NCBI GenBank assembly: GCA_944363635.1
Contig: CALVUP010000004.1
Coordinates: forward strand, 10,249 to 74,248
Length of the DNA stretch: 64,000 nt
Origin: an uncultured Bacilli bacterium
GTDB taxonomy: Bacteria > Bacillota_I > Bacilli_A > RF39 > UBA660
Direction: 5' to 3'
In this document: piece by piece, positions 19,566 to 26,895 of the stretch
How positions within the stretch are numbered: the first letter of the stretch is position 1
Layout: the number at the start of each line of letters is the position of its first letter
Position numbers and translations under genes: made by a program
Notes under the pieces: model-generated
What the model saw: the letters and a program-made list of their open reading frames with translations, nothing else
Database searches by the model: none
What the model was told of the DNA's origin: nothing

Positions 19566-19594
19566 AAAACTTTCCTATTCAATGGAAAGTTTTT
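19564..19594. terminator. Bidirectional intrinsic terminator
   Basis: AAAAACTTTCC-N-GGAAAGTTTTT inverted repeat between convergent genes. Confidence 0.7.
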
Positions 19595-20697
19595 TATTTA
19601 CTTCTATATAAAATAAGTGGTACCAACATTTCTTCGTCGGTTAACCCTGAATGTGAAGATTTATGTTTTTTTGTATTCTCATCATATCGAATAGCTTTGT
19701 TCCCAATGCCTATAGCAAAATAATCACCTAGTCCATCTCGATAATATTTATTTTCTTTTCCATAACCATACAATTTTTTTTCAATAATTTCGTCTTTACT
19801 CATTAAAATAAAATCTTCTTTTAATACCTCTTTTATTTTCTTCGGAAATACTGCTAGATATTCTTTTTTTACCCGAAAAGAACAGGCTCTATTATCAATA
19901 CTAATGTTTTCATCCAACATTTTTACAATTTCCGGGTAATCCGATAAAGTAATATAATCACAATTTAAATGTCCATGATCGGAAATGCCAAGAACAAGTG
20001 TATCTTTCAACGATGTACACATTTTTTGGAATTCTTTATCCAATTTTTTTAAAATGTGTCTTTCTTCTTTTGAATCCGTACCATATTTATGTTCTATGTG
20101 ATCTGGTTCGTTTGAATAAAAATAAATATAATTTTTAAAAGGATTTTTTGTAATCTTTTTTATTTTTTTTCTTGCTTTTCGAAAAGATTCGTTTTTTCGA
20201 TCACTGTATACTGTTATTTTTTCACTATGACACCCTGGTTGTTTGTTGATATGATCAACAATAGATTCATATTTTAGTAATGTTTTTGCTACATGATAAG
20301 GGGCTGGTTTTCTTTTCGTCCCTTTTATATAGTTTCTTGTTAAAGTAATCACAGCATTAAACTCTTTAAAATACATATCCCATCCTAACCATCCGTGTTC
20401 AACTGGATTTAATCCTGATTCTACAGTTGTTCTTGCAGCCATTGTAGTAGAAGGGAAAACAGAAGAAATATGAGTTTTTAAATGCTTATTTAAAAATGGA
20501 CATACATCTTGATTCCTTTTTAATATATTGTACCCTAATCCATCAAACAAAACGAGAACAATATTTTTATAATTCTTTTTTAATTCTTTATCAACACTTT
20601 TTAAAGAGGTGTGCGTTGTTCTTATATGAAAGTCACTCATAATCGAGCTCATTAAATTCACTAAACCATTTTCATAATCAGGATATCTATATTGCAT
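19594..20697 (-). CDS. Alkaline phosphatase superfamily nucleotide pyrophosphatase/phosphodiesterase
   Basis: FDGLG, SVFPSTT, EPDHIEH, SDHGH, HSGLT..EMLVP. Confidence 0.9.
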   Translation of the reverse strand: MQYRYPDYENGLVNLMSSIMSDFHIRTTHTSLKSVDKELKKNYKNIVLVLFDGLGYNILKRNQDVCPFLNKHLKTHISSVFPSTTMAARTTVESGLNPVEHGWLGWDMYFKEFNAVITLTRNYIKGTKRKPAPYHVAKTLLKYESIVDHINKQPGCHSEKITVYSDRKNESFRKARKKIKKITKNPFKNYIYFYSNEPDHIEHKYGTDSKEERHILKKLDKEFQKMCTSLKDTLVLGISDHGHLNCDYITLSDYPEIVKMLDENISIDNRACSFRVKKEYLAVFPKKIKEVLKEDFILMSKDEIIEKKLYGYGKENKYYRDGLGDYFAIGIGNKAIRYDENTKKHKSSHSGLTDEEMLVPLILYRSK

Positions 20698-20740: not shown

Positions 20741-21415
20741 TTAAAATTCTTTTTTCAGATAAATTTTACTAGCAATTTTATAAGAAATAAAATAAACAAG
20801 ACAGATCGCTATTATTAAGATAACAGGTAATGCTTGATGAAGAAAGGTAATGATTGGTTGCCACGAGAAATGCACATTCAATTTTTCTTGTAAGAATAAA
20901 AAGCCACTACATAATAACAGGAAGAATGCTCCAATTACAAAAATTTGTATTCTGCCTTTTTCCGCACCTAGTTTATAAATACAAGGGATTTGTATTGATT
21001 CCATAATACCAATCCCTAAAATGCTACCCAAAGCCATTTCAAAGAATGAATATAAATTAGGAATTTGTTTACTCATAACAAACATCGCTATAAAGCTGAT
21101 CAGCATTCCTACAATTGCTCCAATCAAGGTAGAGAAAATTACAAATAAATATTTAGCTTTTACAATTTCTTTCCTTGTAACGGGTAATGTTAAAAGATAA
21201 GCATCACAAGAAGCTTGTTCGTCATAGTTAAAAGAAGCCATACTAAACATACCAAAACCAAAAGTAAGCATCAAAATAAGCATACTTCCTACTCCTACTA
21301 CACTGTCTTGTGTAATTGAGATTAAAATAAAAATCAAAATATAGACCAATAATGTCTTTCTATAACTTTTTAACTGTAATAAATCTTTTATAATCAATCC
21401 TTTGATTGTATTCAT
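20741..21415 (-). CDS. ABC-2 type permease
   Basis: Six TM segments; LTLPVTRKEIVKAKY. Confidence 0.88.
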   Translation of the reverse strand: MNTIKGLIIKDLLQLKSYRKTLLVYILIFILISITQDSVVGVGSMLILMLTFGFGMFSMASFNYDEQASCDAYLLTLPVTRKEIVKAKYLFVIFSTLIGAIVGMLISFIAMFVMSKQIPNLYSFFEMALGSILGIGIMESIQIPCIYKLGAEKGRIQIFVIGAFFLLLCSGFLFLQEKLNVHFSWQPIITFLHQALPVILIIAICLVYFISYKIASKIYLKKEF

Positions 21416-21416
21416 A

Positions 21417-22274
21417 TTATTTTTCCCCCTTTACATATAAAACCATAATCTCTTCAATCGTTGGTTTATCAATCACTTGTATATCATATTTCTTTTTAAA
21501 TTGTTTTTTATCTGCGATTAAAATCTCATAACCATAACGGTTTTTTCTATACTTAATATAATCTTGTTTCACAATCTTTTTAAAATCCTTCTCTAAACAT
21601 TTTACGATTCCATATTTATCCAATAAGTCGTCTCTTGTTTTGGTAAAAACAATTTCTCCTTGATGAATAAATGTAATATAATCTGCGATATGTTCTAAAT
21701 CAGAAGTAATATGACTAGATACAAAAATTGCATGTTCTTCGTTTTGAATAAAATCTTGAAAAATATCGAGAATTTCATTTCGAGCGATAGGATCCAAACC
21801 AGAGGTTGGTTCATCCAAAATCAATAATTTAGGATGATGAGAAAGTGCGACAGCAATTTTTAATTTCATTTTCATTCCACTGGAATATTCTTTTATTGGT
21901 TGTGTTTTTGGTAATTGAAACTTTTCTAAGTATTGAAAATATAAAGTTTGGTCCCAATTCTTATATATATGTTCCATTGTTTTATGAATATCGGTTGGTG
22001 TTAAATAAGGAGATAAAAAATGATCATCCAAAACAACGCCTATTTCTTCTTTACAGTTTTTTTCATTTTCTTGTAATGAATGGCCAAACAAACAAACCTC
22101 TCCTTGATCAATAGAAATTAAATTTAAAATCGCTTTAATGGTTGTGGTTTTACCCGCACCATTTTCGCCAATTAATCCTAAAATCATTCCTTTAGGTAGT
22201 TTAATATTACAATTTTTTAATTCAAAATTATTGTATTTCTTTTGTACACCCTTTATTTCTAAAATATTTTCCAT
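21417..22274 (-). CDS. ABC transporter ATP-binding protein (YtrB-like)
   Basis: GENGAGKT, YSSGM, LILDEPTSGLD. Confidence 0.93.
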   Translation of the reverse strand: MENILEIKGVQKKYNNFELKNCNIKLPKGMILGLIGENGAGKTTTIKAILNLISIDQGEVCLFGHSLQENEKNCKEEIGVVLDDHFLSPYLTPTDIHKTMEHIYKNWDQTLYFQYLEKFQLPKTQPIKEYSSGMKMKLKIAVALSHHPKLLILDEPTSGLDPIARNEILDIFQDFIQNEEHAIFVSSHITSDLEHIADYITFIHQGEIVFTKTRDDLLDKYGIVKCLEKDFKKIVKQDYIKYRKNRYGYEILIADKKQFKKKYDIQVIDKPTIEEIMVLYVKGEK

Positions 22275-22276
22275 TT

Positions 22277-22651
22277 TTATTCCTCCTCATACAATATATT
22301 TAATATATTTTGTAGTTCTTTCTTAGTTACCTGGCTTATTTTTGCTATAGAAACTGCCGTATCAAGTAATCCTTCTATTTTTTGGAGTTGCTCTTCACGA
22401 ATCAGTTCCCTATTTTTACCAGAGACATAGATGCCCTTACCTGGTATAGTTTCCACATATCCTTCCCTTTCCAACTCATCATAAGCATTTTTCGTCGTAA
22501 TAACACTAATTCGTAAATCTTTCGCTAATTTTCGAATCGAAGGAAGTTGTTCTTGATATTTGAGTTCATTGGTAATAATTTTATTTTTAATCTGTTCTTT
22601 TATTTGTTCATAAATGGGTATATTGCTCGAATTACTAATAATAATATCCAT
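22277..22651 (-). CDS. GntR family regulator (YtrA subfamily)
   Basis: PIYEQI...LPSIRKLAKDLRISVITTKNAY..LE..G. Confidence 0.94.
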   Translation of the reverse strand: MDIIISNSSNIPIYEQIKEQIKNKIITNELKYQEQLPSIRKLAKDLRISVITTKNAYDELEREGYVETIPGKGIYVSGKNRELIREEQLQKIEGLLDTAVSIAKISQVTKKELQNILNILYEEE

Positions 22652-22777: not shown

Positions 22778-22978
22778 ATGAAATTTGGTATGAGAACGCC
22801 TAGTTTAAAAAAATCAATTAAAGCAAGAACAACAGGCAAATTAAAAAGGTCTATAAAAAAAGCAATTAATCCACTTTATGGAAAAAAAGGAATGGGTATG
22901 ATTAAAAATCCTAAGAAAGCCATTTACAATAAAGTTTACAAAAAAACAACTTTTAGTTTTTTTGATTTGTTTAAATAA
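22778..22978 (+). CDS. Small, very basic conserved hypothetical protein of a type often seen in Firmicute prophages
   Basis: MKFGMRTPSLKKSIKARTTGKLKR...PLYGKKGMG..KNPKKA.YNKVY..TT recognised from memory; RBS present. Confidence 0.75.
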   Translation: MKFGMRTPSLKKSIKARTTGKLKRSIKKAINPLYGKKGMGMIKNPKKAIYNKVYKKTTFSFFDLFK

Positions 22979-23006
22979 AAAAATTCGTGTTCGCGCACGA
23001 ATTTTA
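22977..23006. terminator. Bidirectional terminator between the basic protein and tRNA-Glu
   Basis: AAAATTCGTG-ttcgcg-CACGAATTTT hairpin. Confidence 0.75.
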
Positions 23007-23015
23007 TTTTTATCT

Positions 23016-23092
23016 TGGTAGCCTGTACGGAATTCGAATCCGTGAATGTTGCCTTGAGAGGGCAATGTGTTAAGCCACTTCACCAACAGGCC
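23016..23092 (-). tRNA. tRNA-Glu (anticodon CTC)
   Basis: GGCCTGT/ACAGGCT acceptor stem, TTGCC-CTCTCAA-GGCAA anticodon arm, TTCGAAT T-loop, encoded CCA. Confidence 0.95.
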
Positions 23093-23151: not shown

Positions 23152-23397
23152 TTATTTTATTGTTTTCTGATATGCATTTATTTTATCTTCTACATCTCTT
23201 TCTATAATATTTTTAAAATGATTTCATATAACAAAAATTTTTTGCTTAAATATTTCTAAATTATAAACTCTTTGATTCTGTTTATATATTGGAATGTTTT
23301 TCTCCTTCCAATAAAATTGTTAAAATATAATTCTCACAAATGTATTTTTCCTAAAAAAACTAGTAGCGTGAATATAATATTAATCTAAATTCATCAT
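23152..23397 (-). pseudogene. Decayed fourth copy of the HATGG paralog family
   Basis: Reads MMNLD*YYIHATS..., then in another frame ENYILTILLEGEK, then NLEIFKQKIFVI*...DVEDKINAYQK; matches the N- and C-termini of the neighbours with the middle deleted. Confidence 0.8.
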
Positions 23398-23408
23398 AAA
23401 ATTATCTC

Positions 23409-23972
23409 TTATATTCCCTTTTGGTATATTTTTATTTGAGCATTTACCTCTTTTGGGGTAATATCTTTTCCAGTAAAAATATCTTTTGTTTTTATAGTTT
23501 TAAATTCATGAGCAAGGATAACAAGATGATCTCTAAAAAGTTCTAGATTTTTTATTTTGTCTTCATCTGTCATCATGATATCATCATACTTTTTTGGCCA
23601 TAGTGGAAAAGTGATAAATTGTAATTTATCTAGTGATAAATCACCATCATATAAAACTTCATCGTATTCGTCATTGGAATTTTTTGATGGCCCAATATAT
23701 TTTACAGGAAGATCACGAGAAAACACCAAAGATGGTGAATAAAGAACAAATTCATCGAAAGAACAAATATGATTGCCAACGGGAGTTTTTGATTTTTGTG
23801 GATCACATAGATAAGTATGATTTTTATATTTTGAACTGGTCTTATAGTTATTCGTAATTCCTGTACTCCTAATTTTTCCATCTACTAAAATTTTAAGAAG
23901 ATTGCAATGATCATTAAATTCACCCCAACATCCTCCTGTTGCGTGAATATAATAATTGTCTAGATTCATCAT
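23409..23972 (-). CDS. Hypothetical protein, tandem paralog 3 (putative ART-like fold)
   Basis: YYIHATGG..LLKILVDGKI..YLCD..SPSLVFSRDL..YDEV..LQFITFP shared with neighbours. Confidence 0.75.
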   Translation of the reverse strand: MMNLDNYYIHATGGCWGEFNDHCNLLKILVDGKIRSTGITNNYKTSSKYKNHTYLCDPQKSKTPVGNHICSFDEFVLYSPSLVFSRDLPVKYIGPSKNSNDEYDEVLYDGDLSLDKLQFITFPLWPKKYDDIMMTDEDKIKNLELFRDHLVILAHEFKTIKTKDIFTGKDITPKEVNAQIKIYQKGI

Positions 23973-23987
23973 ATTATTTTCTCCTTT

Positions 23988-24587
23988 CTACTTGCTTATC
24001 TTTTTAATTTGTTTTTCTAATTGCTCGGTTGTTAATGTTTTTCCTGTAAAAATATCTTTAATTGGTACTTCTTTAAACTCCTGTTCTAACACTCGAATAT
24101 TTTCTTTAAAAATTTCTAAGTTTTGAATTTTATTTTGATTCCAAAAGACAGGAAAAGTAATAAATTGTAAATGTTCCAGTGAAATATCTCCTTGGTGTCT
24201 TACTTCATCATATAAATTGGTAGTCCCTTTTATAGGTTCTGTTACTTCCATTAATTTTGGTTGATATACTTTTAAATCTCTAGATAAAACCAATGTTGGA
24301 GAATAAAGGGCATAAGTCAAAAACGAAGAAGTTAAATTTCCTATATGTGGATCTTCTTTTGTCATATCACATAGGCAAATATCATCATCGTGTTGTAATG
24401 CATATATATTACCTTTCCCTAAACTTTCATTGGTTTTAATCGTATGTGATTTTAAAATATCAACAATGGCATTTTCTTCATTTTCACAGCCAAATATGCC
24501 ACCTGTCGCATGTAAATAATATGATCCTAAATTTAATACTCTTATATTTCCTATAAGTGGAATGTTATACGTCTTGAATTTTTTCAT
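23988..24587 (-). CDS. Hypothetical protein, tandem paralog 2 (putative ART-like fold)
   Basis: YYLHATGG..ICLCD..SPTLVLSRDL..YDEVRH..LQFITFP. Confidence 0.75.
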   Translation of the reverse strand: MKKFKTYNIPLIGNIRVLNLGSYYLHATGGIFGCENEENAIVDILKSHTIKTNESLGKGNIYALQHDDDICLCDMTKEDPHIGNLTSSFLTYALYSPTLVLSRDLKVYQPKLMEVTEPIKGTTNLYDEVRHQGDISLEHLQFITFPVFWNQNKIQNLEIFKENIRVLEQEFKEVPIKDIFTGKTLTTEQLEKQIKKISK

Positions 24588-24590
24588 CTT

Positions 24591-25181
24591 CTACCCTCTT
24601 ACTTCTTTTTGATAAATTTTTATATGTTTCTCAATATCATCAACTGTAATCGTATTGCCTGTATAGATATCCTTGGTTTCTATTAATGAATATTGTGTTG
24701 AAATAACTTGCAAATTTTGTTTAAATATTTCTAAATAATGCAATTTTCTTGAATTAGTTAAATCAACCGTTAATCTATGAATAGGCCAAATAGGAAAACT
24801 AATAAATTCTAATTGTTCTAACGATAGTTCACCATTATATCTTACCTCATCATACATGTCCGATTCATTTTCATAAAAAGTATACAGCTTATAATCCGGT
24901 GTTTCTACTTGTAGATCTCTACTAAAAGCCAAAGATGGGGAGCATAAGACAAATCCTTTAAAAGCGGATAAAAGTTCAACGTGATATATAGGATCATATA
25001 CAATAGGTTTTGTCGTATCACAAAGACATACTTTATGGATTGGACTTTTATAATAATTCTTATTTTCTTCTTCCCCTTTTACTTTTCCTTCTAATAAAAT
25101 GTTCAAGATCTTATTTTCATCATTTTTTGTTCCTTTATATCCGCCCGTTGCGTGTAAATAATATTTATCTAGATTCATCAT
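24591..25181 (-). CDS. Hypothetical protein, tandem paralog 1 (putative ART-like fold)
   Basis: YYLHATGG..VCLCD..SPSLAFSRDL..YDEVRY..LEFISFP; TGGTATAAT promoter upstream. Confidence 0.75.
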   Translation of the reverse strand: MMNLDKYYLHATGGYKGTKNDENKILNILLEGKVKGEEENKNYYKSPIHKVCLCDTTKPIVYDPIYHVELLSAFKGFVLCSPSLAFSRDLQVETPDYKLYTFYENESDMYDEVRYNGELSLEQLEFISFPIWPIHRLTVDLTNSRKLHYLEIFKQNLQVISTQYSLIETKDIYTGNTITVDDIEKHIKIYQKEVRG

Positions 25182-25239
25182 GAAACCATTCCCTTTTAAT
25201 GCGATATATTATACCATTTTTCTATAAAAAAGTAAAGAA

Positions 25240-26895
25240 TTAGCTTTCGAACAAACTAATTCTTTTTTCTATTCTTTCTTTTCCTAATAATTTCATTATT
25301 TCATATAAATCCGGAGTCATGGATCTTGTTGTGATTACAACACGAAGAACGGTAGATACATCCGCAACATTTCCTTTAAAACGATCGGGATTTTCTTTGT
25401 ATTCTTTCATATTAGAGGCGTAGCCTAATGCATCACATAATTCTTTTATTTTATTAAACCATGTATCCTTATCATCATTTTCATTAAAATACTTATCCAT
25501 ATATATCGTACAAATTTTCTTTATTTCTTCTTTATCCGTTATTTTTTGAAAATCATATTTTTTGTTTTCCTTTTCAAAAAGTTCATCATACATATACCAA
25601 ACTTGATTTTTAATATCGGAATAATTGACATAATCTTTTCTTGGTTTCTTTTGTTCTCTTTCAATATTAAATACTTGAGTCGAATACTCTTTATATTTTT
25701 CTAATAGTTCTTTAAATTCTAAATCATATTCTTTTGTCCATGTATATAATTCTTGATATACTTCTTCTGCTTTCATTTTACTAATTACATTTCTAGAGAT
25801 ATTATCTAGCTTTTCTAAATCGAAGAAAGCTCCCGATGAGGACATCTTTTTTGGAGAATATTGAAAGTCTGTAAAGTTTTTTTCTGGGTTTGCGGTGTGC
25901 CACTGTTCATAATTGGAATTAATAATGGTCATTAAAGCCTCTATAACTGCTTTTTTAGGATATCCTTTATCTTTATAATAGGTCATAGTGGCTTCTGGGT
26001 CTTTTCTTTTACTTATTTTTCTTACACTATTTCCTTCTTTTTTAACGAGCAATGGCGTATGTACATATTTTGGAGCTTTAAAATTAAAAGCTTTAAATAA
26101 CTCTAAATGTTTTGGTAAAGAAGATAACCATTCTTCTCCTCTTACAACATGGGTAGTTTTCATTAAATAATCATCTATAACATGCGCAAAGTGGTAAGTA
26201 GGTAATTTGTTATCTGATTTCATGATAACAAAATCTTCATCATTTTCAGGTAATTCTAATCTTCCTTTTACTAAATCGTCGTATTTAAATTTTCTTTCGA
26301 AATTACCAAGGGATTTAAAACGAATGACATATTCCTCCCCGTTTTTAATTCTTTCGATTTGTTCTTCTAAAGATAATTTTCTACAATGAGACCAAATTCC
26401 ATAATATCCTGTTCGAAACTTTCTTTCTTCTTGTTGTTTTCTTTTTTGTTCTAAATCCTCTTTTGTACAAAAACAAGGATAAGCTCTTCCGATTTCAATT
26501 AAATATTTAATAAAAGTATGATAGATTTCTTTTCTTTCACTTTGTACATAAGGTCCATAATTTCCTATAATTTTTCCATTTTCTTCATACTCACTTGGCA
26601 TAATATCATAATATCTTAAGGTATCTATAATTAACTGAGAAGCGTTTTGTACTTCTCTTTGTTGATCAGTATCCTCATTCCTTAAATAAAAAATGCCATC
26701 AGAATTTTTCGCAAGCATATAATCAATAATAGCCTGAAAAAAGCCACCTAAATGAATAAATCCGGTAGGTGAAGGAGCAAAACGAGTTACTTTTTGTCCT
26801 TCTTTTAATTCTCTAGGCTTATAAATTTCATCATAATAACTAATATCCTGTTTAATATCTGGAAATATTAAATTTGCTAAATCTTTATTTGTCAT
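25240..26895 (-). CDS. gltX: Glutamate--tRNA ligase
   Basis: TRFAPSPTGFIHLGG, PTYHFAHVIDD, HVVRGEEW, KISKR. Confidence 0.96.
   Translation of the reverse strand: MTNKDLANLIFPDIKQDISYYDEIYKPRELKEGQKVTRFAPSPTGFIHLGGFFQAIIDYMLAKNSDGIFYLRNEDTDQQREVQNASQLIIDTLRYYDIMPSEYEENGKIIGNYGPYVQSERKEIYHTFIKYLIEIGRAYPCFCTKEDLEQKRKQQEERKFRTGYYGIWSHCRKLSLEEQIERIKNGEEYVIRFKSLGNFERKFKYDDLVKGRLELPENDEDFVIMKSDNKLPTYHFAHVIDDYLMKTTHVVRGEEWLSSLPKHLELFKAFNFKAPKYVHTPLLVKKEGNSVRKISKRKDPEATMTYYKDKGYPKKAVIEALMTIINSNYEQWHTANPEKNFTDFQYSPKKMSSSGAFFDLEKLDNISRNVISKMKAEEVYQELYTWTKEYDLEFKELLEKYKEYSTQVFNIEREQKKPRKDYVNYSDIKNQVWYMYDELFEKENKKYDFQKITDKEEIKKICTIYMDKYFNENDDKDTWFNKIKELCDALGYASNMKEYKENPDRFKGNVADVSTVLRVVITTRSMTPDLYEIMKLLGKERIEKRISLFES

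Follow-up and report, generated by a model that had tools for sequence, protein, structure and literature searches.

What are the three short genes that lie in tandem between the gene for a glutamyl-tRNA synthetase (gltX) and that for tRNA-Glu(CTC) in an uncultured member of the Bacilli, and what might their products do? The window, meaning the whole 64,000-nucleotide stretch of contig CALVUP010000004.1 (assembly GCA_944363635.1) that was analyzed, carries at this junction three co-oriented paralogs and a decayed fourth copy, and the first-pass annotation, made by a model from the letters of the window, had read them as orphans resembling ADP-ribosyltransferases (ARTs) and as a possible toxin, effector or anti-phage family. 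The analysis points to a new, lineage-restricted family of the ART superfamily, so far unnamed, whose members are probably cytoplasmic, stand-alone proteins and Pfam orphans; the ART-like family is probably also active. There is no Pfam, NCBIfam, PADLOC or PHROGs model above cut-off for any of the three proteins, which upholds their description as orphans.

Predicted fold, motifs and distribution of the family

Copy 1 was modelled with AlphaFold2 from a 17-sequence alignment (predicted local distance difference test score, pLDDT, 92.7; predicted template modelling score 0.90). Strands run through residues 7-11, 50-54, 83-87, 112-116, 124-129 and 169-171; a helix spans 25-31, and residues 143-195 form a long helical hairpin. 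The predicted architecture is an ART-like split β-sheet core followed by a C-terminal helical hairpin. In a structure scan of 48,161 PDB chains, independent of Foldseek, the best match to copy 1 was Tpt1 (7yw4; Z 7.9, root-mean-square deviation 2.5, 99 residues), DarT chains scored Z 6.0-6.6 over 125-132 residues, and nine of the 50 rows spanned the core (residues ~1-175), all of them ARTs, the other 41 matching the helical hairpin only. Foldseek gave no match to copy 1 in the PDB at E ≤ 1e-3, its list being headed by Tpt1, mosquitocidal toxin, DarT, pierisin, Arr, and the heat-labile and cholera toxins; when its top 1000 were re-aligned, 41 of 50 rows had the ART fold.

Because the Z values for copy 1 lie in the zone of chance matches, a second model was built for a distant relative (P0050) from a distant-clade alignment that does not overlap the first (pLDDT 93.9). 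In the same scan 14 of the 48,161 chains reached Z ≥ 5, and all 14 are ARTs: Tpt1 (Z 7.7, root-mean-square deviation 3.0, 102 residues), DarT (7.3, 7.2, 7.0 and 6.9), and further KptA, CC0527, CteC, TreX, SopF, LT, pertussis toxin and scabin. The first Foldseek row was DarT 7omx, with a printed E of 1.0e-3 and a probability of 0.99. For copy 1 and for the distant relative the split β-sheet core thus superposes on ARTs (Z 5-7.9), and the two high-confidence models match solved ARTs ahead of every other fold, as the ART-fold reading made at first pass had anticipated; on the strength of these models the ART fold of the family can be taken as established with high, if not complete, confidence. 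In the viral models of BFVD no match reached E ≤ 1e-3, the top rows being unnamed giant-virus and phage proteins; phage versions of DarT and of RNA 2'-phosphotransferase came 29th and 36th. A PDB sequence search with two family profiles gave chance matches only (troponin C, E 0.015; ferritin, E 0.32).

The conserved residues map to the positions of ART motifs I to III. Among 38 diverse members there is no variation at Y8, D55, E112, V113 or P130 and hardly any at H10; in a distant clade of 34 members the His, the Ser of SLCD, the DEV motif and the Pro are invariant. At the position of motif I, H10-A11-T12, an HxT form, ends strand 7-11, and helix 25-31 carries L..IL..G. At that of motif III, E112 of Y-D-E-V (38/38) opens strand 112-116. 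ARTs carry STS or, in H-Y-E enzymes, Tyr on the second core strand. In the copy 1 model the corresponding strand, 50-54, carries C-L-C-D, which reads S-L-C-D in distant members and whose Asp is invariant in 38/38; this motif II is not canonical, and resembles the SxS/CxS variants of AbiGi-like families described in a Legionella ART survey (10.1101/2024.07.30.605764). We ran hhalign against AbiGi (two alignments, A3 and A2), DUF2971 and DarT (5- and 30-sequence profiles), and in both DarT runs E112 falls on the Glu of AEVLV, the sole invariant Glu of the DarT alignment; this residue corresponds to the “single completely conserved glutamate” of DarT, where an E160A change abolishes toxicity (PMC5179494). 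In support of the ART-fold reading made at first pass, model strands and hhalign place the HATGG His at ART motif I and the YDEV Glu at motif III. Within the close family, conservation peaks on the motif-bearing core strands and is lowest at residues 31-50, 56-70, 91-109 and 131-150.

Several points weigh against this reading. That H10, the Cys or Ser and E112 meet in one cleft is a prediction from strand position and alignment; motif II is atypical, being neither the Tyr of H-Y-E enzymes nor plain STS; the His is replaced by Tyr in three of the 38 members (P0015, P0035, P0036); and one congener copy has MEAEV and CLVD, another MLDEV without KDIYTG. By profile comparison there is no significant sequence link to any ART family. 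With AbiGi, hhalign pairs HAT with HFT and CLCD with CFCD at a probability of only 14.5% (A2) and 2.6% (A3); with DarT it gave 53% for the 5-sequence profile and 0.6% for the 30-sequence profile; and with DUF2971, which has no match in the window's own genome, 0.1%. The DarT Pfam model matched none of the three window proteins, one of the 38 members at E 0.012, below cut-off, and nothing in the own genome. A link to DarT through the 53% result was rejected, as it came from a thin profile of five sequences and was not reproduced with 30. The structural scores, too, are in a grey zone, with a best Z below 8 and, by Foldseek's count, no match at E ≤ 0.001 for either model.

These scores are what one would expect if the resemblance were that of a common α/β arrangement, in a family of another fold class and chemistry: models without true matches typically reach a Z of 7-8 according to the scan tool, and the profile comparisons are not significant. 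We nevertheless hold this explanation to be highly improbable. Two models from non-overlapping alignments give the same ranking, and with the second all 14 of the chains at Z ≥ 5 are ARTs from many different families; the matches cover 99-140 core residues; the conserved His and Glu sit on ART motif positions; and an independent, feature-based search points to AbiGi, which the survey cited above lists as ART-like.

The question of how widely the family is distributed could be addressed on a large scale. Fifteen proteins came out of a word-indexed search of 5.8 billion clusters, and a full HMMER pass over 1.84 billion representatives returned 97 at E ≤ 1e-3, of which 39 reached ≤ 1e-10 and 27 reached ≤ 1e-30; none of the 97 HMMER matches, all 35-258 residues long, is a fused form, and Pfam gave sub-threshold noise only for 59 more distant relatives. 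A narrow profile found the family in two of three congeners and in none of 37 other relatives, and a wide profile in six of the 49 further genomes searched from the same GTDB family and none of 349 from other families of the class. In these searches the family turned up only within one GTDB family of small-genome Bacilli; its distant-clade members occur singly and at unrelated loci.

The array at the gltX-tRNA-Glu(CTC) junction

The genes stand on one strand, in the order given here (window coordinates):

26895..25240, minus strand: gltX, long-type glutamyl-tRNA synthetase (GluRS) of 551 residues (Pfam tRNA-synt_1c E 2.2e-71, Anticodon_2 E 3.2e-07), upstream border of the islet
25236..25208, minus strand: promoter-like TTTACT-17-TATAAT with TG extension (TGGTATAAT), within the 58-nucleotide gap from gltX to copy 1
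25181..24591, minus strand: copy 1, 196 residues, ART-like by its model; HAT at 10-12, CLCD at 52-55, DEV at 111-113; open reading frame (ORF), family profile E 2.2e-87
24587..23988, minus strand: copy 2, 199 residues; ORF, family profile E 1.7e-74; start 3 nucleotides past the copy 1 stop
23972..23409, minus strand: copy 3, 187 residues; ORF, family profile E 9.8e-71; start 15 nucleotides past the copy 2 stop
23397..23152, minus strand: decayed copy 4, interrupted by three in-frame stops and one frame shift, and lacking ~110 central codons that would carry motifs II and III
23092..23016, minus strand: tRNA-Glu, anticodon CTC (ARAGORN), downstream border of the islet
23005..22980, minus strand: terminator-like hairpin followed by a T run, 3' of tRNA-Glu(CTC)

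ORFs, alignment and profile scores (E 2.2e-87 to 9.8e-71) confirm three co-oriented paralogs with the motifs first listed for them. The paralogs are 42-45% identical (42% and 45% to copy 1 for the other two) and share 53 invariant columns in the three-protein alignment, among them HATGG, LCD, SP.L..SRDL, YDEV, F.FP and KDI.TG; the Gly of IL..G is absent in copy 2, as had been noticed. A 46-nucleotide DNA repeat present four times, at spacings of 575, 567 and 642 nucleotides, marks four tandem units. The fourth of these is the decayed copy, correctly recognized at first pass: it reads MMNLD*YYIHAT..., with three in-frame stops, and has a second piece (ENYILTILLEGEK) in another frame; the family profile still matches it at 23191-23316 (E 0.0015), and repeat families D1 and D5 are further evidence for it. 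Copy 2 carries a 16-residue N-terminal extension (MKKFKTYNIPLIGNIR; 24540-24587), and similar extensions in P0012, P0018 and P0028 point to a conserved subtype with an extra N-terminal segment. No signal peptide was seen by inspection, in keeping with the earlier statement, and strand 1 begins at residue 7 in the copy 1 model.

A purine-rich stretch precedes the start of each copy. The proposal that one promoter serves all copies stands in so far as a consensus site lies in the gap upstream of copy 1; the site is a consensus match only, and the number of such sites in the region (29) is not above that in shuffled sequence (30.2 +/- 5.1). The host genome has 1.24 Mb and about 28% G+C, and is 95% complete with a contamination estimate of 3.2%.

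Phylogenetic analysis was used to investigate the history of the copies. A maximum-likelihood tree was built with 46 members of the family, and in it the paralogs of the window are not one another's sisters: copy 1 clusters with P0002-P0005 from other contigs (Shimodaira-Hasegawa-like approximate likelihood ratio test 84-100), copy 2 joins the second G001 copy with weak support, and the median terminal branch is long, at 0.63. For these paralogs the pairwise proportion of synonymous differences is 0.65-0.68, the synonymous rate (dS) 1.5-1.7 and hence saturated, and the nonsynonymous rate (dN) 0.50-0.56, giving a dN/dS of ~0.3 which, with synonymous sites saturated, is blind to episodic positive selection. 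Saturated dS combined with low dN/dS indicates that the duplications are old and that selection has been purifying overall; the description of the family as rapidly diversifying is therefore not supported, the paralogs being old and not each other's closest relatives. The term birth-and-death array fits better, in that close relatives have 0-3 copies plus a pseudogene, and this mode of evolution is only partly shown. Near-identical DNA is present in chicken gut metagenome-labelled runs from several studies, and in the independent run X2 near-identical contigs tile the whole array; given this tiling and the dN/dS of ~0.3, these are real, maintained genes.

Is the position of the array next to two genes of glutamate translation meaningful? 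The long-type gltX orthologue (~550 residues) is present in 15 of 15 same-family relatives searched, and we took the region downstream of gltX from 14 relatives. In five of the 14 (G010, G012, G006, G031, G030), two of them from other GTDB families, tRNA-Glu(CTC) follows 12-61 nucleotides after gltX on the same strand; in three (G007, G013, G004) gltX and the tRNA are separated by one or two unrelated ORFs; in the congener G003, whose GltX is 86% identical, the tRNA is inverted 188 nucleotides downstream and the family gene is absent; and in another five the tRNA-Glu was not within the stretch fetched. A family member was found at none of these 14 downstream regions. The copies at and around the junction are as follows:

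G000 (the genome of the window): 3 copies and 1 pseudogene, between gltX and tRNA-Glu(CTC)
G002: 2 copies, behind an extra 295-residue ORF (L009 6701-7588) downstream of gltX
G001: at least 2 copies, on a contig that ends 89 nucleotides past the second copy
L014 (more distant): 1 copy, inverted, between gltX and tRNA-Glu(CTC)/tRNA-Gln, with other flanks differing
G003: 0 copies, tRNA inverted

In G002 the tRNA-Glu(CTC) lies ~3.4 kb further on and is inverted; the 295-residue ORF is without any Pfam match.

The pair gltX-tRNA-Glu(CTC) is an old one, and the space between the two genes is a variable islet of which the ART-like genes are one cargo. Since the junction is empty or holds unrelated genes in relatives, an accessory role is indicated, which argues against a functional tie to glutamate translation; such a link, called speculative when it was raised, now looks positional.

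The same survey bears on the proposal that these are ART-fold housekeeping enzymes acting on tRNA-Glu, GluRS or RNA ends by Tpt1-like chemistry, and kept beside gltX and tRNA-Glu(CTC) for that purpose. Such enzymes would need no antidote gene, both models find their best structural match in the nicotinamide adenine dinucleotide (NAD)-binding lobe of a tRNA 2'-phosphotransferase (Z 7.9 and 7.7), and the gene lies between gltX and tRNA-Glu(CTC) in G000, G001, G002 and, inverted, in the more distant L014. However, only the C-terminal lobe of Tpt1 is matched, the RNA-binding N-terminal lobe being missing; the congener with the 86% identical GltX and the same tRNA does without a copy; none of the 14 downstream regions has the gene, gltX and the tRNA being 12-61 nucleotides apart in five; and the distant members sit at unrelated loci. 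We consider a housekeeping function of this kind quite improbable.

Several further features of the neighborhood were noted. The gltX and tRNA-Glu(CTC) genes may be a dedicated synthetase-tRNA pair (loci L065, L068, L069, L071, L072); the own genome encodes a second tRNA-Glu (TTC) at another place and has one tRNA-Gln (CTG), and a shorter GluRS (~483 residues) also occurs in some relatives (G004, G006). At tRNA-Glu positions 23049 and 23054, T>C and T>G variants appear in contigs of runs X18 and X2 at a depth higher than that of the array, and these probably represent tRNA-Glu genes from other organisms of the same samples. Just beyond the tRNA terminator, on the opposite strand, lies an ORF for a very basic (Lys/Arg-rich) protein of 66 residues (22778-22978, plus strand). 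Further on the tRNA-Glu side, at 20741-22651, are a GntR-type regulator ORF (124 residues), an ABC ATPase (285 residues) and a permease-like ORF (224 residues), all named by eye, and beyond them a 367-residue ORF (19594-20697). This last ORF has a homologue in the congener G003 that adjoins the tRNA directly, so that the GntR/ABC/permease module also looks like variable cargo.

Partners and proposed role

Further evidence against an ART toxin or defence protein comes from the surroundings of the array. No antitoxin gene is adjacent, the operon consisting of paralogs only and its neighbors being gltX and tRNA-Glu; the junction has no ORF of ≥40 residues clear of the paralogs, gltX and the tRNA, the 13 listed all overlapping these (12 on the opposite strand, one out of frame). 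Together with the genome searches, this confirms the initial observation that no antitoxin gene stands beside the array. Neither is there an adjacent macrodomain, ARH or NADAR gene, and ARH and NADAR were not found in the 95%-complete genome. The three proteins have no PADLOC or PHROGs match that would signal defence or mobility, and tblastn gave no match to the family in phage and plasmid collections. Transcription of the array has a weak hint at best, in one 247-nucleotide contig of one RNA library (X20), 99% identical over 23270-23516; in the RNA libraries X17, X18 and X20 the array is represented in part, by short contigs, the stretches without a contig being uninformative, and short contigs in copies 1, 2 and 3 come from two libraries whose kind is uncertain.

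A type II or type IV toxin-antitoxin module was considered and rejected, there being no adjacent small antidote gene and gaps of 58, 3 and 15 nucleotides. Nor is the array flanked by an att-like direct repeat of the tRNA, and with neither such a repeat nor a phage or plasmid match, a mobile element is without evidence. The only macrodomain gene of the genome (345 residues) is on an unlinked 2.9-kb contig (C44; L073 1022-2059), where it adjoins a fragment of a large surface-type protein; it could be contamination. In genus g11 (G013, G462) an ORF of 233-235 residues lies immediately upstream of a distant family member on the same strand (L051 6947-7654; L052 7208-7909); it may be a partner gene, and it has no counterpart in the array of the window. 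Pfam gave nothing above cut-off for the 233-235-residue ORFs or for the 295-residue ORF of G002.

What the proteins do can be proposed from the models. NAD+ would be bound in the cleft formed by the HxT, [C/S]xCD and Glu motifs, and its ADP-ribose would be transferred to a macromolecule, for which nucleic acid appears likelier than protein. ARTs carry target-recognition loops in the stretch preceding the catalytic Glu. In the window family the variable stretches 31-50, 56-70, 91-109 and 131-150 may set the target, and the old paralogs may differ in it. That the family carries out NAD+-dependent ADP-ribosylation of a macromolecule, plausibly nucleic acid, with paralogs of differing target, has in our estimate about an even chance of being right. 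The genes would be accessory ones serving conflict, most likely against phages, and because no antidote gene is adjacent, the products are probably not constitutively toxic.

A tandem set of divergent paralogs that includes a pseudogene and lacks a partner toxin or antitoxin would also be seen if these were catalytically silent ART-fold decoys, sensors or orphan immunity-type proteins, diversified in an array as in immunity-gene islands. The motif changes could be read in the same way (His to Tyr in 3/38, Asp to Ala and Cys to Val in one congener copy), as could the label “antitoxin” that AbiGi carries in its sources. Set against this are the Glu of DEV and the motif II Asp, both invariant in 38/38, conservation that peaks exactly on the motif-carrying core strands, and purifying selection overall; silent proteins therefore seem to us a quite improbable explanation.

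A bolder form of the reading as ARTs is a stand-alone, antidote-free family of nucleic-acid ARTs with a separate target for each of the old paralogs, be it phage DNA or RNA or the tRNA or mRNA of the neighboring translation apparatus; the array would then be a small multi-specificity innate immune battery, harmless until infection. We regard this as unlikely, and if true it would be a new way to deploy chemistry of the DarT/AbiGi type without a DarG-like partner. Should the enzymes be active without an antidote, how toxicity is avoided would matter. Uncultured gut Bacilli whose genomes are reduced (1.2 Mb) maintain ART-like genes in lineage-specific arrays, and the practical value of the present ones is modest until activity is shown.

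Comparison with known families

Membership of the window family in AbiGi, DarT, Tpt1/KptA or DUF2971 was considered and rejected, the membership test having come out negative for each; the likenesses that do exist are nevertheless distributed between them in a distinct manner. The Legionella ART survey (10.1101/2024.07.30.605764) counts AbiGi, DarT and DUF952 among the ART families already known, and describes DUF2971 (PF11185) as similar to AbiGi and DarT. The hhalign probability of DUF2971 with AbiGi is 33%; DUF2971 proteins start with YKYR, not YxHxT.

Tpt1/KptA, an RNA 2'-phosphotransferase family (which we take to be PF01885), has the highest Z with both models, through its NAD-binding ART lobe. 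It differs in that only this C-terminal lobe is matched (7yw4 residues 112-230; KptA 93-180). The N-terminal RNA-binding lobe of Tpt1 bears catalytic Arg/His residues. This lobe has no counterpart here, the window protein beginning at strand 1.

DarT (PF14487), the toxin of DarTG, ADP-ribosylates thymidine or guanosine in single-stranded DNA, and matches the models better over its full length than any other solved structure (Z 6.0-7.3 over 119-132 residues, with the Foldseek result for the distant member given above). Like the window proteins it is a single domain of ~200 residues, and the family Glu falls on its invariant catalytic Glu. Its motif II is a different one, a Y..N.Y..RNP block as against [C/S]xCD, and its macrodomain antitoxin DarG is not adjacent here, where the genes form an array of paralogs.

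AbiGi (PF10899) is the first gene of the lactococcal abortive-infection system AbiG. Its motifs FHFT, L..IL..GF, CFCD and ExEWR follow the same order as those of the window family, aromatic-H-x-T, L..IL..G, a C-x-C-D strand and an acidic Glu motif, and by language-model features it is the best named neighbor (23 of the 30 best named clusters, scores 0.90-0.91). There are clear differences: none of the 38 members has an AbiGi Pfam match at E ≤ 10, nor has the own genome; AbiGi is larger, ~250-270 residues compared with ~190; its invariant W90, P98 and Y101 and the E-W-R of ExEWR are missing from the window proteins, which have a KDIYTG strand and a C-terminal helical hairpin of their own. The array holds no second conserved gene such as the two-gene AbiG has, and AbiGii (PF16873) has no match in the own genome, its model also matching none of 14 control genomes. 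AbiGi is without a solved structure, and a 2026 review (PMC13064643) gives no PDB match for it; this classic phage-resistance gene is still without a mechanism.

The study of ADP-ribosylation directed at nucleic acids, as carried out by enzymes such as DarT and Tpt1, is still young. In structure the window family is, by its models, nearest to DarT and to Tpt1 (NAD lobe), and its motif pattern is nearest to that of AbiGi; a compact family of ~190 residues with high-confidence models, which would bridge AbiGi-like motifs and DarT/Tpt1-like structure, offers a tractable handle on this branch of the ARTs.

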